Origin: Clostridia bacterium | GTDB lineage: Bacteria; Bacillota; Clostridia; UMGS1883; UMGS1540 | Length of the DNA: 64,000 nucleotides | Assembly (NCBI GenBank): GCA_045648645.1 | Contig: JAZROH010000116.1 | Span: 3,014 to 67,013 of the forward strand | Direction: 5' to 3' | Part shown: piece by piece, positions 39 through 50,567 of the stretch | How the letters are laid out: each line of letters opens with the position of its first letter | Position numbering within the stretch: the first letter of the stretch is position 1 | The notes under the pieces: model-generated | Databases searched by the model: none | Told to the model about the DNA's origin: nothing | Seen by the model: only the letters and a program-made list of their open reading frames with translations | Position numbers and translations under genes: made by a program

Positions 39-1385
39 ATGAACTATATTACAGAAGTTAAACGTCTTGTACAAAATAAAAAAGCGTATGTCCGTACTTT
101 TGGCTGTCAATTAAATGAAAACGATAGTGAAAAACTTTTAGGGATGCTATCGGAGATGGGATACAGCATAACGGAATGCCCGGAAGAAGCGGATTTTGCC
201 CTTTTAAATACATGCGCCATTCGAGAAAATGCGGAAAAGAAAACCTTTGGCGCACTTGGTGTTTTTAAGCATTATAAAGAAAAAAATCCAGGACTTGTTG
301 TTGCAATGAGCGGCTGCATGACCGGAGAAGCACACGTAATTGAAAGTCTTGCTAAAACATATAAACATGTAGATATTGTTTTTGGAGCCAACAATATTCA
401 GGCTCTGCCACGCCTGTTATTTCAGCATTTGACGGAAAACAGGCGTGTTTTTGATACAGAATATGATGCAAATATACTACCCGAGAATCTGCCGACCATG
501 CGAAAATTTTCTTTCAAAGCAGGTGTGCCTGTTATGTACGGGTGCAATAATTTTTGTACATATTGTATTGTTCCGTATGTGCGAGGCAGAGAACGGAGTC
601 GTGAAGTTGCAGATATAATAAAAGAGGTTACCGTACTTCGCGAGAATGGCTGTAAAGAAGTGATGCTACTGGGGCAGAATGTGAATTCATATCGCGGCGG
701 CGGAGAAGAGTTTGCCCGTCTTTTGGAAAAGGTCAGTGATACAGGCATAGAACGTATTCGATTTATGACATCGCATCCAAAAGATTTAAATCCCGCAGTA
801 CTTAAGGTTATGGCGGAGAGAGAGAATATATGCAAATGTTTGCATTTGCCTGTGCAATCCGGAAATAACAGGGTGCTTGCAAGCATGAATCGCAGATACA
901 CAAGAGAAAAATATCTTTCAATTGTAAATCTTGCGCGAGAATATATGCCTGATATAGCTATTACAACGGATATTATTGTTGGTTTTCCGGGTGAAACGAC
1001 GACTGAATTTGAGGATACAATTTCTTTGCTTAAAGAAGTTCGTTATGATGCTATTTTTTCTTTCATTTTTTCACCCAGAAAAGGAACGCCAGCTGAAAAA
1101 ATGGAAGAAGTAATAAGCGAAGAAGAAAAGAAAATGAATTTCGAGCGTCTTTTAGAAGTGCAAAATCTTATTTCCGCTGAGAAAAACGAGCTGTTATTGG
1201 GAAAAGAGATGCGCGTTTTGTGTGAAGGGGTAAGCAAGACGGACGAAAAAATGATGACAGGTCGCACGGAGGGCGGAAAAATTGTAAACTTTAAGGGCGA
1301 ACCGTTTCAATACGGACAGTTTGTTGATGTGAAAATTACAGAAACAAAAACCTGGAATTTGCAAGGAGAAGCGATATGTCGCTAA
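39..1385 (+). CDS. miaB: tRNA-i6A37 methylthiotransferase (MiaB-type radical SAM MTTase)
   Basis: 448 aa; N-terminal MTTase domain (YVRTFGCQLNENDSE). Radical-SAM CxxxCxxC (CNNFCTYCIVPYVRGRERSR). C-terminal TRAM-like region. Confidence 0.85.
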   Translation: MNYITEVKRLVQNKKAYVRTFGCQLNENDSEKLLGMLSEMGYSITECPEEADFALLNTCAIRENAEKKTFGALGVFKHYKEKNPGLVVAMSGCMTGEAHVIESLAKTYKHVDIVFGANNIQALPRLLFQHLTENRRVFDTEYDANILPENLPTMRKFSFKAGVPVMYGCNNFCTYCIVPYVRGRERSREVADIIKEVTVLRENGCKEVMLLGQNVNSYRGGGEEFARLLEKVSDTGIERIRFMTSHPKDLNPAVLKVMAERENICKCLHLPVQSGNNRVLASMNRRYTREKYLSIVNLAREYMPDIAITTDIIVGFPGETTTEFEDTISLLKEVRYDAIFSFIFSPRKGTPAEKMEEVISEEEKKMNFERLLEVQNLISAEKNELLLGKEMRVLCEGVSKTDEKMMTGRTEGGKIVNFKGEPFQYGQFVDVKITETKTWNLQGEAICR

Positions 1386-13813: not shown

Positions 13814-14248
13814 ATGAGAAAGAATGCAAGAGAAGATGCTTTTCGGCTACTGTTTGAACAGCATGTAAATCCTGAGAATGCAGCTGAAAAATTAAAAAGA
13901 TACTTTGAAACGGCAAAGGAAGAACAAAAAGCAGAGGAACCCTTTTATGTAAATCGTCCGTCTGCAGCTGATATTGCATATACGGAGAAGATTGTCGAGG
14001 GAGTTCAAGAAAACCTTCAGGAAATAGACGCCCTGATTGAAACGAATCTTAAAGATTGGGAAATGGATCGTGTTTCTAAAATTAGCATAGCAGTTTTACG
14101 CCTTTCCATATTCGAAATTTTACATATGGAAGATATTCCGGCGGAGGTTTCTGCGAGTGAAGCTGTTACTATTGCTAAAAAATATGATAGCCCTAGTGCC
14201 GGCGCTTTTGTAAACGGAGTTTTGGGAAATATAATTAAATCGAAATAA
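13814..14248 (+). CDS. nusB: Transcription antitermination factor NusB
   Basis: 144 aa; ARE(D)AFRLLFE N-terminus is typical of NusB. Confidence 0.8.
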   Translation: MRKNAREDAFRLLFEQHVNPENAAEKLKRYFETAKEEQKAEEPFYVNRPSAADIAYTEKIVEGVQENLQEIDALIETNLKDWEMDRVSKISIAVLRLSIFEILHMEDIPAEVSASEAVTIAKKYDSPSAGAFVNGVLGNIIKSK

Positions 14249-43950: not shown

Positions 43951-43989
43951 GAAAAATCCTTGTAACACTTACAATTACAAGGATTTTTC
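43951..43989. repeat. Perfect 15-bp inverted repeat with 9-nt spacer
   Basis: GAAAAATCCTTGTAA-cacttacaa-TTACAAGGATTTTTC in the mtaB/giant-ORF intergenic region. It is not followed by a clean U-tract on either strand. Confidence 0.5.
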
Positions 43990-44166
43990 TATCTTTATAC
44001 AGGTGTTTCAAGTGAACGCCCTATTAATTTATTTAATTCCCATTAAAAGTTCCATAACATACATTTCGAGTGCTTCGTAATTTCTTTCTTCCATTCATTT
44101 CTTTTCAAAAGCATAGTCGTAGCGATTCAGCTTTTCTTCCAGCATTTTTGTAATCTTCAAGCTGTT

Positions 44167-47100
44167 TTGCTTCGAGGTTTAAATGATGACCAGGCATTTT
44201 CTTTGGGTGTTATTGCAGCAGCAGTTGAGGGGCTAACGGAGAAATATTCCCTGGAGGCACTTTTAGATGACAGCGTCAAAGGATGGAGATACATCGCGCA
44301 AAACGCTCTGACGGAAGCGAGCGAAGAAACAGCCTCGAGCGCTATAAACTTTATGGCGGATATAGCCGTTTCCAAAGAAAAATTGGAATGGATAAAAGCA
44401 ATCGAACGATATGAGAAGAGCGGTCACAGCGCAAAAGAGGCATACGGAAAAGCCTTTGGGGACCAACTTCTTTCCATTGGGTTAGATGCGCTGGGCGGTG
44501 CGATTTCGGGCGGCGTTTTAGCGGGCTCTATCTCTTTGATTAACAGCGTTTCGAACAGCCGAGAAAACCGCGCGGAGCGAAAGGCAGCATTGGCGGGACT
44601 CCGAGAAGATGCGCAAAAAGAGCTTGCAAAGCGGGAAGGGATGCAGCCGATAACAGAGGCAGACGCGCCGACGATAGCACCTTCCTCTAACGGCGCACAG
44701 GGCGTCCGGGGTATTACCCCTACAAAAACCACACCGAGCATCGTTCTTCCGACAGCCGAAACAGCCGGACAAACAATTACATTGCCGACAGCAAAGGACG
44801 CTATGGGGCAGAATGCCGAAGCAGCTAACGGCGGCATGACGGAAGAAGACTACGATGCAAGAATGGACGTTCTGGAAGCTGAGGCGAGCATGGCGGGCGA
44901 AAGCATGCTGTACGAGGATGGGCGGCAATTTTCGATTGTGGGAAAAACTGAGGACGGAAGGAAAATATATAAAACCAACTATCCAAAGGGTACGCCGAAG
45001 GCTGTAAAACAAAACGATGTCATCCAAATGGTGCAAAACATCTGGTCGAAAAAGCCGATTGAATTGACAATTGTAAACGAGGAGACAGGAGAAACAGAAA
45101 CAATAACAGCAAAATTCAATCCGGAACTCGGGGAACGCAGCGACCTTTCAAAAATTGCTTTCGGGAACAGAAAGGGAACCGGTAGCGAAAAAAGAATGAC
45201 TTTAGACTTGGCTCCCGATTTTTACCAAATTGCGCAGGATGCAAGCCATACCGGCGGGAAGGCGGAAACAGGGAAAGACAATCCGGCGCATGATGATGTG
45301 AAAAGATGGGAATATTTTGTTACAAATCTTGTATACGAAGATGAACAGGGCATGCAAACAGATGCACATATGAACATTGACGTGAAAAGAACAAGCGATG
45401 GAGAGTTTTTCTATTCTTTCGGAATGGAAAAAGGAACTGCCCCACAGGCTTTACTTGCTGTGGTAGACGAAGATGCTTCGCCAACAGTTCCTGAAAATAG
45501 TATACCACAATCCACGCCCGATAGTCAAGAAAATTCTGGGTCAAATCTTTTTGGACCGACTGTACTGCCGACAGCGAAGGAACAAATGGAGCAGGCAAAG
45601 AGAGAAAAACGGGCAGCAAAGGCAAAAACGGAGACGGAACGGACAGGGATACTCTTAGGCGTTCCGGACAAAATTATACAGGAAGCCGTACGGATATCAA
45701 AAGCGCTCGGCGTTGACGTTCTTTTCTATCGAAACACAGGCGGCAAGGTAACAAACGACCGGGGGTATTATAATCATAATAACGGCAAAATTTATCTTAA
45801 CGCCGACATCACGGATCCTATTGCGTTCATCTTAGGGCATGAGATGATACACGACATACAGCTTACGGACGGATATATAAAATTTGCAGATGCGGTACTT
45901 AAAAAAATTCAGAAGGATGGCGGGGACCTTGCGGCAATCCGAAAGGAACTTCGGGACCGCTATGCCAGAAACGGCGTAAAGCTTGATTCCATCGCCAAGA
46001 TAGACCAGGATGTGATAGCGGAATATGCGCAGGAGCATCTTTTTACGGATGAGGCAAGCATTGTTTCCGTTGTAAATGCCGACAAGGAAAGCGGCAATGC
46101 GATTTTACGCTTCTTAGATAAAACGCTTGCGGCGCTGGGAAACACAAATGCGCGGGAAAGGGTATTCGTCGAAAAGGCGCGTTCCTTATATGCGGCAGCG
46201 CTTCGGCAGAATGCAGGTATGAAAAACGCCGAACGATGGAAGGGCGAAACAAAGGCGGCACAAACACAAACGACGGCAGACTACGCTTCCGGAGATATGA
46301 CGGACGCGGAATACGACGAGAGAATGGACGTTCTGGAAGCTGAAAGAAGTATGGCGGGCGAAAGCATGCTGTATGAGGATGGGCGGCAGTTTGCAATCGG
46401 AAAAGACAAAGGGGTTGCAAAACGGGATGAAAAGAGATATAATAATTTAAACGATAAATCGGGAGGAGAAAGTCATGCCGATACTGGAAAACATGACAGT
46501 GTCAGAACGACACAATTACGAGAGAATGAAAAAACGGGGATATACAGACGAACAAATCAAGAAAATGCTCCAAGATATACGAGACATACCGAAGGAGAAA
46601 AAGGAGGAAATTTACCGTCTTATCCGCGAGAAAATGACGGTGACATCCCAAAAAGAGGAATCATAAAGAGCGTTTTTCATGGGACGCCGTACAGATTCAA
46701 GGCGTTTTTAAAAAGCTATATTGACATAGGAATTCATTTCGGGACTAAGGCTCAGGCAGAGGCAAGACTTTCAGACGTTAAGGGGCATATCGACGAATTT
46801 GATTTAAGAATTGAAAACCCACTTGTCACAAAGGATATTTTTGGTGAAAGAGTTGCGGAACAATATGCAGAAGAGATATTGCAAGAGGCGAATCTTTCAG
46901 AAAACGAGAAAACAGTTTTCCAAAAAGAACTTGATGAGTTTTACAATTCCGACATTAAAATGCTGGCGACTGATTCCCTTAAGGAAAAGCTATCTGAAGG
47001 AAAACATAAATTAAATGTGGATATTCAAACGGACGGCATACACGTTACCTTGGCATTGGTTGACGATGAACTTAAAATCAACGAAATTCCAATGGCGGAG

Positions 47101-50100
47101 CTTATTGATAAAAACAAGTTGGTCGAGATTTTAGGATTTAAGGATACCATTCAAACGCTTGAAAGTAAAAGTTTATCCGAGAAGGCAATAGGGAAAATAA
47201 CTCCATACATTTTCGACGCAGTGCTCCCGTTTGAAGTTCAGTTTTTAAAGCTTCGAAAAATCGAGAGCATATTACAATCTTTTGGCTATGATGGCTTCGC
47301 CTACAGAAACGAAAATGAAGGAGAAGGATGGTCGTACGCTGTTTTTGATGACAGCCAAATTATTAGAAAAACAGATATAACGAACGAAGATTTACTGGAG
47401 CGCCAGTACGCTATCGCAAAAGACAGCACTGCAGAAACCGTAGCTGAGAATTTACCACGAAAAGCACAGGCAGCACTAAGCCAGACGGAAAACAGGTTAT
47501 CGGAGCGTATCGGGGAAATCTTAGGCGTTCCAAAGCAGGCGCAGAGAGAATACCTAAAAGAGATTATCCGGGACATATCGGAAGACTACCTGCAGAGCGG
47601 CACCATCGACCGGGCGAAAGCGGACGCACTTTTTGAGGAAGCTTACAAGCAGGGCATTGTGGTGGATGCTGACTATTACGAAAAATATAAACATATCCGC
47701 GACCATCTGCGAGACACACAGCTTACCATTTCGCCGGAGGATAGTTCGAGCATTGTGGATTTCAATGCCTTCCGGAAAAGCACTTTCAGGAAGCTTCGTA
47801 TCGTAAACGAAGGGGGACTCCCGGTAGACGTGGCGTATGCAGAGCTTACGGAGATGGCGCCGGAATTATTCCCGGAGGACATTACCCATCCGGCGGACCA
47901 GCTGCAGCACATGTTTGAAATTGCGGACGGCATACGAAAAACAGAGCAGACGCTGGACGAAGCCTACGGGGAGGACGCGGAAACCTTCAAGGAGGCAGCA
48001 AGAGACGAATTCCATGCGGCACTCAACTCCGCGGCGGCGGATTTTAAACGGGTCAAGCGCTATTCTGAAGACAGAAACAGAATTGCCGGAGAACAGGAAG
48101 CGGAGAAGAAGGAAACCGTGCAAAGCCGGGAGGAGCTGGACGAGGCGTACAAAAACCTGAAAACAGCCCGGCGGAACATGGAAAAGGTAAAACGAAGCGC
48201 GCTACTGACAGAGCAGGACGAAATGCGTGTGGGACAGCTTCTGCGCGGGGAAATCAGCCCTATGATGCTGGATCCGGAAACGGACAATGTAAAAGACATT
48301 CTGACGGTGTATCGCGCAAAGCAAGAATATGAAAAATATGCAAAGCGCATCCGGGACTGGAACAGAAGACGTCGGGAAGGTTTAGCGGCACAGGCGAGAG
48401 AATACCTTACAAACATCAGAAAATGGAAAGATAAGGTACACCTTGGCGGACTTCGATATTCCCGCGAAACCATGGAACGAAACTTCCGGGATATTATGGG
48501 CACGGATGCAGATGCACTTATTGCAGAATATCTTACGCCGGTACATAAGGCGCAGGCGGCGGCGACGCGGCTTAAAAACGAAATGCGAGGAAAGGTGAAA
48601 TCCTTACAGCTTTCCCGCAAGGTGGCGGCGGGAAACACCGTTTCCGAAGCGCATGCAGTGCAGCTCCTTGGAGAAGCGGAGGACAACATTGCCGTTTTAA
48701 AAGTGATGCCAAAGGACACAAAGCGAGACGGCAAGACGCTTTCGGAGTGGGAAGGGACTGTCGCAAAGCTTTGGGCGGAAAACCCCAATTTGGACAAAGG
48801 GAAAATCCGCGGGGCGGTGCAGACCTTCCGGGACATATACGACGACCTCTTTGCGCAGATGAACGAGGCAAGAGTGCGGAACGGGTACGAACCGGTAAAC
48901 TATCGAAGAGGATACTTCCCGCACTTTCAACCGGGAGACGAAGGGGTATTGGCGCAGTTTGGCAGAGCTCTTGGGATTGACACGGCGGTATCGGCGCTGC
49001 CGACAACCATTAACGGCATGACGCATGTGTTTAAGCCCGGCATACGATGGCTCGGAAACGCACAGGAACGTCTTGGCTTTAACACGGTGTACGATGCGGT
49101 GGAAGGATTTGATAAGTACATCGAGGGCGTGGCGGACGTTATCCACCAGATAGACAACATCCAGAAGCTCCGCGCGCTTGCGAAGGAAATCCGCTATGCG
49201 GCATCGGATGAAGGCGTTAAAAAACAGGTAGACCAGATAGAAGCAAATCCTGCGCTTTCCAGAGACGAGAAGGATGCGCTGATTTCGCAACTTTATGAAA
49301 ACGCCAAGTTCGCTCTGGGCAATTTCGTGGTGGAACTTGACGAATACACAAACCTTTTAGCCAACAAAAAGAGCCGGGCAGACAGGGAAATGGAACGGAA
49401 GCTCGGGAGAGGCATGTACAATATTATGCAGCGGGTAAACGGAAACGTTGCAGGGAACATGGTGGCTCTCAACATTCCGTCATGGCTTACAAACTTTATT
49501 CCGCTGACGCAGGCGTGGGGTCTGGTGAACACAAGGTATTTGCTCCGGGGCATGGGCGATACGATAAAGGCGTACCATAGCGGCGACGACATTGTTTCCC
49601 GCAGCACATTCCTTACAAACCGCCGCGGCACAGACCCGCTTGTACAGATTTGGGAGCAGGGCGAAGAGGCGAAAAATATTCTCGGCAAAATGTGGCGAGG
49701 GTATCAGGCAGGCGTAAACAAGCTTTCGGGCGGCATGGAATTTATTGACGCGTTCACTTCGGATTCCATCGTCCGGGCGAAATACTACCAGAATTTAGAC
49801 GCCGGCATGAGCGAAGCGGCGGCTATGGATGACGCGGACGCTTTTGCAGCGGGTGTTATGGCGGACAGAAGCAAGGGGGCAATGCCCACGACCTTCCACG
49901 AAACCAATCCGGTGAAAAAGCTGTTTACACAGTTTCAACTTGAAGTCAACAATCAGTACAGTTACATGTTTAAGGATATGCCGCGGGCGGTGAAGGAAAG
50001 AGGCATGGCGGAATTTAAAGCCGTCCTCAAAAAGAGAATCAATGAAAAAGAAGAACAATACAATGCACTTTTGCAAAATCTGTCCTCAGGAGCTTTGCCG

Positions 50101-50336
50101 CCTGCAGTTTTGACCGATCTTGGAAAGAAAATGCAGAAGATTAAAGAGGAAATAGAAAGCCTGAAAGCTACCGAGCCGCCGAAGGAATTTGCAGCCCCGG
50201 TTGTCCTTTCATGGCTTGAAAACCTTAAAAACCATCCAGACGATGAAGCGGTTCGTCTCCTGATTGAGAGAATTGATGTAAAAAGCACAACAGACTTCAA
50301 TATGCATAGCACATTAAAGTCTGTTGTGGGTAAAAT

Positions 50337-50358
<22 letters not shown>
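44167..50358 (+). CDS. Giant multidomain protein (2063 aa), polyvalent-protein-like: zincin HExxH metallopeptidase-like module, duplicated module, coiled-coil and large C-terminal domain; possibly 5'-truncated
   Basis: The longest ORF in the window. Its frame opens at 44047, with no ATG and no RBS before a TTG at 44167. HEMIH motif at 45838-45852 (AFILGHEMIHDIQ). A ~105-nt near-identical module occurs at 44832-44936 and again at 46292-46396. A Gly-rich hydrophobic segment sits near the N-terminus. The 3' end overlaps a tRNA gene. GC content is visibly higher than in flanking DNA. Confidence 0.6.
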
Positions 50359-50413
<55 letters not shown>

Positions 50414-50442
50414 ATATTGATATAATTTTCTGAACGAATTAT

Positions 50443-50471
50443 ATTATACTATATTGTTATGCGTTTGTCAA
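50443..50471 (-). promoter_or_regulatory. Consensus sigma-70 promoter for tRNA-fMet
   Basis: On the minus strand: TTGACA, a 17-nt spacer, then TATAAT, ~30 nt upstream of the tRNA 5' end. Confidence 0.65.
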
Positions 50472-50567
50472 GATTTTTATTAAAAAAATTTTATCTTTCC
50501 TAAAAAGAATAAAATTCTTTACATTTCTCCCAAAATATGTTAACATAGAAAGGAGGTGAGATTACAA

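Follow-up and report, generated by a model that had tools for sequence, protein, structure and literature searches.

In polymorphic toxin systems, short demarcation motifs (VENN in CdiA and PxxxxDPxGL in Rhs proteins) stand where a conserved region gives way to an exchangeable cassette; they can be sites of processing and also landmarks for recombination. Further, conserved sequences beside the variable toxin ends of polymorphic toxin genes allow cassettes to be swapped by homologous recombination. Prohead-protease motifs (L/I-x-E for T4 gp21; S/A/G-x-E in phiKZ-like phages) direct the maturation of packaged virion-internal proteins. We know of no maturation protease in P22-type or T7-type phages. 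For the polyvalent proteins of phages, processing by zincin-like peptidases is predicted in the available portion of Iyer et al. (Iyer, Burroughs, Anand, de Souza and Aravind, 2017; PMC5512222), in which we found no inter-domain recognition or cleavage motif or site defined. The words "motif", "linker" and "junction" are absent from Jamet et al. (2017) on MuF-type polymorphic toxins. According to the available portion of a preprint (bioRxiv 10.64898/2026.04.10.717836), the podovirus polyvalent protein phi24B gp47 (2811 aa) was detected in virions and is proposed to be an ejection protein, which supports a packaged-and-injected life of the polyvalent class; we found no junction motif or processing reported in that portion.

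The window, a stretch of 64,000 nucleotides from a Clostridia bacterium, carries a giant ORF that resembles the polyvalent proteins as presented in that portion of Iyer et al. (2017), in that it encodes a very large chain of unrelated effector domains (Table 1). Unlike them, it is a truncated orphan fragment rather than a gene in a phage, and its domain set differs from that given for phi24B gp47 in the same part of the preprint (LPD5, LPD1, LPD38 and MuF-C). A HExxH domain, an ART-PolyVal-like domain and domain X, which is possibly a BECR-fold RNase, lie together in one frame; this is a polyvalent multi-domain layout in which the individual assignments are weak. No polyvalent-specific Pfam domain exceeded its gathering threshold in the ORF; the ART-like domain matched PF18760 (E = 1.7e-5; 26 bits, under the 31.2-bit cut-off). 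Homologues at 50-75% identity carry PF18760, PF18819, PF18838 and PF18798 in precomputed annotation. There was no MuF match in the ORF, the N-terminus of which is truncated, and MuF_C (PF18819) is present in some homologues. The reading that we prefer, with confidence about evenly balanced, is that two repeated stretches of the ORF (modules A and B) are copies of one module, which marks junctions between the domains of a phage polyvalent protein and has one reader per protein, probably a processing protease.

Table 1. Features of the giant ORF and the adjoining host unit (positions in the window)
Feature	Positions	Strand	Remarks
Giant ORF	44167-50358	+	2063 codons, TTG start; internal fragment of a phage polyvalent/internal-virion protein gene
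Linker with two LPTA[EK] motifs (aa 194, 206)	44746-44796	+	Upstream of module A
Module A (aa 224-257)	44836-44937	+	SHOCT-like helix, then SMAGESMLYEDG, then junction core RQFSI
Domain X (aa 258-445)	44938-45501	+	Highly conserved cassette
Third LPTAK motif (aa 467)	45565-45579	+	In linker upstream of HExxH domain
Putative zincin-like metallopeptidase (HExxH) domain (aa ~495-700)	45649-46266	+	HEMIH at 45838-45852
Module B (aa 711-744)	46297-46398	+	Ends in RQFAI; C-terminal tail of HExxH domain
Basic low-complexity linker (GKDKGVAKRDEKRYNNLN...)	46399-46653	+	Genuine in-frame sequence; in frame in P0004, P0018 and P0002
ART-PolyVal-like ADP-ribosyltransferase domain (aa 830-1062)	46654-47352	+	Pfam PF18760
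Short junction core RQYAI (aa 1079-1083)	47401-47415	+	Between ART-like domain and conserved body
Conserved body (aa 1095-1956)	47449-50034	+	52-75% identity with full-length homologues
ORF tail, non-homologous	50035-50358	+	Last 24 codons antisense to tRNA-Met terminator and gene
Host tRNA-Met unit	50286-50471	-	Consensus promoter 50471-50443, tRNA 50413-50337, terminator 50328-50286

The first-pass annotation placed the two copies at 44832-44936 and 46292-46396. The repeat itself was borne out by nucleotide and protein alignment and by blastn, with a register that had been one base off: the offset is 1461 nt rather than 1460 nt, and at the latter the identity is 25%. In register, the copies lie 487 codons apart, both in the frame of the ORF, and share 85 of 102 nucleotides (83%) and 28 of 34 residues (MTEEDYDARMDVLEAEASMAGESMLYEDGRQFSI and MTDAEYDERMDVLEAERSMAGESMLYEDGRQFAI); blastn aligned 96 nt at 85.4% identity (E = 1.2e-26). 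When the ORF was compared with itself, this pair was the sole significant direct self-repeat. The 22-nt run GAATGGACGTTCTGGAAGCTGA occurred exactly twice in the window and in none of 100 shuffles, and the other long identical runs quoted earlier, of 23 and 14 nt, were also found. The description "near-identical" was overstated, because the copies differ at 17 of 102 nucleotides, comprising six synonymous single-base changes and 11 bases in six replaced codons. Of the 24 positions at which both copies encode one and the same residue other than Met, 18 also share the codon, compared with 9.4 predicted from the codon usage of the ORF (P approximately 2e-4). The two copies are thus more alike as DNA than their common residues and codon usage can account for.

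The full module was found in approximately eight of 1.84 billion protein cluster representatives, with one to four copies per gene; a common motif of unrelated proteins was ruled out. A scan of genome contigs returned just two loci; IMG/VR was scanned with the module and JGI metagenome contigs with both the module and a 161-aa segment, and these scans gave only unconfirmed pattern matches. The module has no Pfam family. Among 13 copies from different genomes, 14 alignment columns were invariant.

The proposal of a recent duplication was not supported, as copy B is as near to its P0004 orthologue (0.84 nucleotide identity; 16 of 26 codons) as to copy A (0.83; 18 of 24 codons). Further, module copies from all genes share 0.65-0.92 of their nucleotides in pairwise comparison, which means that most of the identity is old and was kept by selection at the protein level. 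A neutral, functionless product of recent duplication or gene conversion would account for the identical runs of 22, 23 and 14 nt and for the surplus of shared codons; we nevertheless regard it as improbable, given the conservation of the module in eight protein clusters (up to four copies per gene), the invariant columns, and the replacements between modules A and B, which cluster on the helix surface and leave the core fixed.

A fusion of two originally separate ORFs had also been suggested. Single ORFs of independent assemblies (P0019, P0026 and P0005, which align to residues 192-760 of the query) carry module A, domain X, the HExxH domain and module B colinearly in this order, and the suggestion was therefore dropped. 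It is very improbable that the layout stems from an error of assembly or that two genes were fused in frame by accident. The contig does come from a metagenome-assembled genome, and the ORF, a foreign segment, shows abrupt shifts in GC content; against this, the recurrence of the layout in independent assemblies and the 17 differing sites exclude collapse or expansion of the assembly, and the reading frame of the linker that follows copy B is conserved. The in-frame translation after module B looks odd. An RBS-like GGAGGAG and an ATG that opens a 63-codon ORF in an alternative frame (46475-46666) suggested a frameshift or a second gene at this place. We rejected this idea because the in-frame linker is conserved in three homologues (Table 1) and the alternative-frame peptide has no homologue.

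Each module consists of an amphipathic SHOCT-like helix (TxxEYDxRMDVLEAExSMA) followed by a disordered segment, YEDGRQF(S/A)I, which ends in the core RQ[FY][SA]I. As had been claimed, low-complexity linkers lie upstream of both copies and unrelated sequence lies downstream, namely a folded domain after module A and the basic linker after module B. Module A has a linker on one side and domain X on the other; module B is flanked by the HExxH domain and a linker. The claim that the module recurs where domains meet in a polyvalent-type protein was thus supported. The more specific proposal that it precedes each effector domain was correct for module A and incorrect for module B, which is the tail of the HExxH domain and is separated from the ART-like domain by the 85-residue linker. 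The third boundary, between the ART-like domain and the body, has the short core without the full module, and the ORF thus carries three marks: RQFSI, RQFAI and RQYAI. In AF2 models, the helix of module A (aa 226-242) was predicted with low confidence and a confident fold began at about aa 254; the helix of module B (aa 713-730) had pLDDT 71-84, and the core from aa ~732 was disordered (pLDDT <50).

In its first half (G-x-(M/I)-T-(D/E)-x-E-Y-D), the module resembles the helix consensus of SHOCT (PF09851); unlike the module, SHOCT is typically C-terminal, and the junction core lies outside it. The module could accordingly be a structural spacer, in which a SHOCT-like helix and a flexible tether space or oligomerize the domains, or dock the protein to the capsid or portal for packaging, with no cleavage. 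The confidently predicted helix of module B is consistent with such a role, as are weak SHOCT matches in the window (E = 0.014) and in four of 18 homologous segments (best E = 2.3e-5). Module B, however, scored 15.6 bits, well under the 27-bit Pfam cut-off. Moreover, the helix half is missing at most junctions of the family, which keep the short core alone; this makes the core rather than the helix the conserved functional unit. We consider the spacer unlikely, although a non-catalytic binding partner would explain the uniformity of marks within proteins (below) equally well.

A boundary mark, [RKQ][YF][SA][ILV], sits between domain cassettes across the family; RQ[FY][SA]I is its form in this clade, and modules A and B are elaborated local forms of this short mark. 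The short core precedes domain X in approximately 60 homologues that lack the full module, and most homologues have [RKQ][YF]S[ILV] before the body, at the position equivalent to RQYAI. The core pattern occurred 332 times, compared with 165 ± 12.5 in shuffles. Homology blocks started beside a mark 1868 times versus 471 expected (4-fold) and ended beside one 1375 times versus 468 expected (2.9-fold), these being counts over non-independent pairs. Proteins with the HExxH domain showed a greater excess of marks (224 versus 90 expected) than those without it (108 versus 70). There was no association between the I/V or L variant of the mark and the presence of the HExxH family (Fisher P = 0.13 by site and 0.57 by protein).

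The variant of the mark was uniform within proteins at three positions, with Y/F as the exception. Agreement at positions 0, 2 and 3 was 0.66, 0.64 and 0.55, versus 0.35, 0.47 and 0.32 after permutation, and none of 2000 permutations reached the observed values; at the Y/F position, the observed and permuted values were the same (0.53). Further, the variant before domain X follows the host protein, being RQFSI, TRYAL or VKYSL and matching in each case the other junctions there. Homogenization at the DNA level would have covered the Y/F position too, and the pattern therefore indicates a shared reader. Part of the uniformity could have arisen from cassette exchange among close relatives or from tandem cassette duplication (P0026 and P0019). 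At junction A, the core may be partly structural, because it abuts the first strand of domain X in the model.

The mark resembles the CdiA VENN and Rhs motifs as a short sequence at a cassette border. Unlike those motifs, it recurs between internal cassettes rather than occurring once before a C-terminal toxin, and it has neither an accompanying immunity gene nor sequence similarity to them. With prohead-protease motifs it shares recurrence as a short motif in virion-internal proteins, and it differs from them in consensus. The related prophages carry P22-type portal and T7-type internal-virion genes.

The modules might instead matter mainly as DNA, providing similarity at cassette boundaries by which domains are added, deleted or swapped. 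Several observations are in keeping with such a recombination joint: the surplus of shared codons; the identity of copy A with copy B of its own gene (0.83), which is higher than that with its A orthologues (0.76-0.78); the B-type copy at the A position of P0019 (aa 988), which is 0.92 identical to P0005_1278 and thus indicates module swapping; and the difference between homologues in whole cassettes bounded by these elements. However, the family-wide core is just 4-5 residues long, its conservation is at the protein rather than the DNA level, and the Y/F position is not homogenized within proteins, whereas the three other positions are. Further, recombination between modules A and B would remove the HExxH domain along with domain X, whereas homologues without domain X retain the HExxH domain, and the indel is bounded by LPTAK linkers. 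LPTA[EKQ] occurred 55 times in 121 homologues versus 0.6 times in shuffles, and a 29-nt self-match joins the third LPTAK motif to the region of the first. On balance we doubt that recombination is the main role of the modules.

Under the preferred reading, that of a junction module with one reader per protein, all marks within a protein would be read by the same partner. Most likely, this partner would be a processing protease by which the giant protein is split, once packaged or injected, into separate effectors, and the candidate is the HExxH domain between modules A and B. Were the cut to fall before the aromatic residue of the mark, domain X would come free and keep its first strand whole. 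The analysis shows the repeat, its siting at domain boundaries, its narrow distribution, the disordered core and the within-protein uniformity of the mark; from these we infer the existence of the reader, its nature as a protease and the position of the cut. As a secondary effect, the modules and LPTAK linkers may allow cassettes to be gained, lost or swapped by recombination because of the DNA similarity among them.

The HExxH domain is a putative protease on the basis of its motif and of family matches below threshold. H558, E559 and H562 were invariant in 18 homologues. In the AF2 model (pLDDT 80.8), predicted strands E39-42, E54-57 and E62-66 are followed by a helix (72-86) bearing HEMIH; the modeled arrangement, with HExxH in a helix after a small beta-sheet and conserved metal ligands, is that expected of a zincin-like metallopeptidase. 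Weak matches were to DUF6782 (10 of 18 members; best 7e-5) and to the metallo-protease phrog_87 (5e-5). Both fold searches returned no zincin match for this domain and were uninformative.

The giant ORF is shortened at both ends relative to homologues of 2700-3300 aa, and its homology corresponds to their positions ~520-2200. The native C-terminus of the homologues (...NPFDTSVGTQVYNAL...) is missing; because of this absence, the weak similarity between aa 1985-2040 and the ends of some homologues was rejected as spurious. GC content is 45-55% in the ORF and 35-40% in its flanks. The ORF is flanked by housekeeping genes of the host, without any further phage gene, and it adjoins a tRNA gene; with the foreign composition and the truncation, these are the features of a prophage remnant. 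Full-length homologues, in contrast, lie in prophages near P22-type portal, terminase and internal virion protein genes, and P0005 and P0006 adjoin portal, terminase, internal virion protein and integrase genes. DNA homology to the prophage locus L001 stops at window position 50011, and the tRNA-Met flank (83% identity from window position 50263) also borders another polyvalent fragment in L008. Upstream of the ORF, we found no RBS and no convincing promoter on the + strand. The window copy is therefore probably inert, being a truncated remnant of a prophage that lacks obvious signals for expression. Orphan fragments of the polyvalent gene occupy at least six host chromosomal sites and have breakpoints in common; they may reflect a specific process of capture or deletion, or a reservoir or decoy retained by the host.

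As a dead remnant, the window copy is of little importance in itself, and the find is a fairly ordinary one, yet it hints at a possible cutting or recognition code for polyvalent proteins. These are thought to be the first strike of the phage, giant packaged polypeptides that bring many anti-defense enzymes in with the DNA. The mark provides a practical rule for splitting polyvalent proteins of 2000-3400 residues into domains for annotation and expression. Further, being recurrent, exposed and tuned to the lineage, it is a concrete, mutable target for asking whether polyvalent proteins act whole or cut. Tentatively, and with more doubt than expectation, we suggest that [RKQ][YF][SA][ILV] might serve phage polyvalent ejection proteins generally as a code for processing or recognition, its variant tuned in each lineage, at every junction of the protein, to one cis-encoded peptidase or other reader. 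If true, the polyvalent class would have in this mark its first defined "cut here" signal.

Comparison of the giant ORF with itself revealed a single significant direct repeat, namely the look-alike stretches module A and module B, each ending in the core RQ[FY][SA]I. The first-pass annotation had reported two repeat copies; both are present and lie in the frame of the ORF, but the second interval had been placed one base off. The copies are 1461 nt (487 codons) apart, and identity is only 25% at an offset of 1460. In register, 85 of 102 bases (83%) and 28 of 34 residues are identical (blastn: 85.4% over 96 nt, E=1.2e-26), and a 22-nt run shared by the modules has exactly two occurrences in the window and none in 100 shuffles. 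The 17 differences comprise six synonymous changes and 11 bases within six replaced codons. Further, the same codon is used at 18 of the 24 positions with a matching non-Met residue, compared with 9.4 expected from the codon usage of the giant ORF (P about 2e-4).

Pfam detected only a sub-threshold ART-PolyVal match in the giant ORF (aa 830-919). A search of 5.8 billion proteins returned 142 homologues, most of which are 2000-3400 aa long with the polyvalent domains PF18760, PF18819, PF18838, PF18798, PF18812 and PF18814. The full-length relatives P0005 and P0006 are encoded in prophages, adjoining an amidase, a P22-type portal and terminase subunits, with phrog_511 'internal virion protein', a sigma factor and an integrase as further neighbors. 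Because these genes sit beside portal, terminase and internal-virion genes, we infer that the family is a virion-internal polyvalent protein. The class was defined by Iyer et al. 2017 (PMC5512222), and one such protein has been found in virions of phi24B, according to passages of a preprint (bioRxiv 10.64898/2026.04.10.717836). The giant ORF is a member of this class, but as a truncated remnant.

Features of the giant ORF, in the order of its parts, and of its surroundings (window positions; aa, residues of the giant ORF)
Feature	Position	Strand	Description
Giant ORF	44167-50358	+	2063 codons, TTG start
Part 1			conserved N-terminal piece
Part 2	44746-44760, 44782-44796		linker upstream of module A; two LPTA[EK] motifs (positions)
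Part 3, module A	44836-44937	+	34 residues, in frame
Part 4, domain X	aa 258-445		conserved cassette, possibly BECR-fold RNase
Part 5	45565-45579		linker upstream of HExxH domain; LPTAK motif (position)
Part 6, HExxH domain	aa ~495-700		putative zincin-like metallopeptidase; HEMIH 45838-45852
Part 7, module B	46297-46398	+	34 residues, in frame
Part 8			basic linker, 85 residues
Part 9			ART-like domain
Part 10			short core RQYAI
Part 11	aa 1095-1956		conserved body
Part 12			non-homologous tail
tRNA-Met transcription unit	50286-50471	-	complete: promoter, tRNA, terminator
tRNA-Met gene	50413-50337	-	perfect consensus promoter TTGACA-17-TATAAT
tRNA-Met terminator	50328-50286	-	20-bp stem
Recurrent breakpoints	44167-44200; L004 10001-10040; L003 ~14180-14200; L004 ~14220-14240		polyvalent fragments in the window and other loci

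The linker after module B also holds an alternative-frame ORF of 63 codons (46475-46666) behind a strong RBS-like GGAGGAG; it has no homologue, the main frame is conserved at the same place, and it is probably due to chance.

The giant ORF covers just positions ~520-2200 of the full-length proteins and lacks their C-terminus. Its GC content is 45-55% vs 35-40% in the flanks, where host genes lie on one side (YceG, GNAT acetyltransferase, ThyX, WecG/TagA, MiaB-like enzyme) and on the other (DprA, DUF2232, GdpP). Neither an RBS nor a convincing promoter was found upstream, the last 24 codons are antisense to the terminator and the 3' end of tRNA-Met, and the stop codon lies inside the tRNA-Met gene on the opposite strand. 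The truncation, GC shift, host neighbors, missing signals and antisense tRNA-Met end thus indicate a prophage remnant at the tRNA-Met site. From where phage homology ends to where the tRNA-Met flank begins (50035-50262, about 230 nt), the open frame continues with no match among the retrieved sequences. The AT-rich spacer that separates the MiaB-like gene from the polyvalent fragment contains a perfect hairpin (ATCCTTGTAA...TTACAAGGAT; 43955-43995) between A-runs and T-runs, which resembles a bidirectional terminator.

Isolated internal fragments of the polyvalent gene were found among host housekeeping genes at at least six different chromosomal sites (the window, L002, L003, L004-L007, L008 and L010), each with an open frame of 1419-2251 codons; the fragment encoding P0018 recurs on 15 contigs, drawn from several metagenomes. 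Just two or three relatives lie within genuine prophages (L001, L009, L011). Some fragments have breakpoints in common: those of the window and P0018 start within about one codon of one point, (R/K)GL..D.QA..LG, and in P0004 and P0018 alike the break lies 1-2 nt past PVHKAQA, despite unrelated host flanks. The tRNA-Met flank (50263-50496) is 83% identical, terminator hairpin included, to that at L008 (16703-16934), and adjoins two different polyvalent fragments in the two genomes. Because the same host junction joins different phage sequence, this suggests an attachment-site hot spot with subsequent variable deletion.

An HMM built from both modules placed full modules in the closest relatives only, with 1-4 copies per gene; in P0019, two short copies accompany four full ones. 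When 1.84 billion cluster representatives were searched exhaustively with a profile, 10 matches at E<=0.001 were obtained, two of which were spurious repeat proteins. With about eight real clusters remaining, the full module is a narrow-clade feature rather than a motif common among unrelated proteins, the possibility raised against it in the first-pass annotation. None of the curated families covers the module, and its helix half is SHOCT-like below threshold. In the AF2 models, aa 713-730 of module B form a helix predicted with confidence (pLDDT 71-84), after which the core is disordered (pLDDT <50). For module A confidence was low, and domain X is confidently folded from about Q254/F255 onward, so that the core of module A abuts the first strand of domain X. 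The HExxH domain of more distant homologues closes with G-E-I-T-E-E-E-F/Y-D ... x-Y-S-I, a degenerate form of the module; module B therefore represents the conserved tail of this domain, and module A is a second copy set in front of domain X.

At the DNA level, identity among all module copies of all genes is 0.65-0.92. The earlier suggestion of a recent duplication is not borne out, since module B is as near to its P0004 orthologue (0.84) as to module A (0.83). Module A is 0.76-0.78 identical to orthologous A copies, and these values suggest that there may have been some within-gene homogenization or that module A derives from a B-like copy. Conservation of the module across genomes and a layout colinear with independent assemblies make both a neutral duplication and the assembly artefact envisaged earlier unlikely. 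Modules do move: in P0019, B-type sequence (0.92 to P0005_1278) occupies an A-type position (aa 988). Whole cassettes distinguish homologues from one another: P0002, P0003, P0004 and P0018 lack module A and domain X, yet retain the HExxH domain and module B, and LPTAK linkers flank this indel. As a rival reading, the junction may be a recombination joint, which is compatible with the other readings. LPTA[EKQ] is a second punctuation motif (55 occurrences in 121 homologues vs 0.6 in shuffles), and in the window it bounds the cassette missing from other homologues.

The core extends beyond the full module. In about 60 homologues without the full module, x-[KRQ]-[YF]-[SA]-[LIVF] precedes domain X, and most homologues carry RQYAI, KQYAI, IRYSV, TRYSI, RRYSI or similar within 20-45 residues ahead of the conserved body. 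The four-residue mark [RKQ][YF][SA][ILV] occurs 332 times in 121 homologues vs 165 +/- 12.5 in shuffles, and adjacent to it starts and ends of homology blocks are enriched 4x and 2.9x, respectively, among non-independent pairs. Its extended consensus is (P/D)(G/D)(I/R)-[RQK]-[YF]-[SA]-[ILV]-(S/P)(E/D)(D/E), in an acidic, low-complexity context. We consider it very probable that the modules and the mark are an inter-domain junction element. Passages of Iyer et al. 2017 (PMC5512222), Jamet et al. 2017 and the phi24B preprint do not mention a repeated, lineage-tuned junction mark.

The mark variant is the same throughout one protein and differs from clade to clade: RQ[YF][ASM][ILM]/IQYAI in the window clade, x-R-[YF]-A-L in another, and IRYS[VIL] or VK[FY]SL in others. 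Among 54 de-replicated proteins, agreement within proteins at mark positions 0, 2 and 3 was 0.66, 0.64 and 0.55 (permuted: 0.35, 0.47 and 0.32), which was attained in none of 2000 permutations, whereas Y/F agreement equaled expectation exactly (0.53 vs 0.53). Domain X is about 60% identical between clades, yet bears the variant found elsewhere in its host protein. Since DNA homogenization would homogenize Y/F too, the pattern is in keeping with selection by a single reader for each protein. The excess of the mark is larger among proteins that carry this HExxH family (224 vs 90 expected) than among those lacking it (108 vs 70); the I/V vs L variant showed no association with presence of the family.

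The marks may therefore be exposed recognition sites, each protein having one partner that reads them. A docking or spacer element without cleavage is a rival reading, compatible with this as with the others, and only tentatively do we regard the mark as a cleavage site. A cut ahead of its aromatic residue would leave domain X intact and would suit zincins, since these usually prefer a bulky hydrophobic P1' residue. The most likely partner would be a processing peptidase, such as passages of Iyer et al. (PMC5512222) predict for the polyvalent class, which would split the polyprotein into individual effectors once injected.
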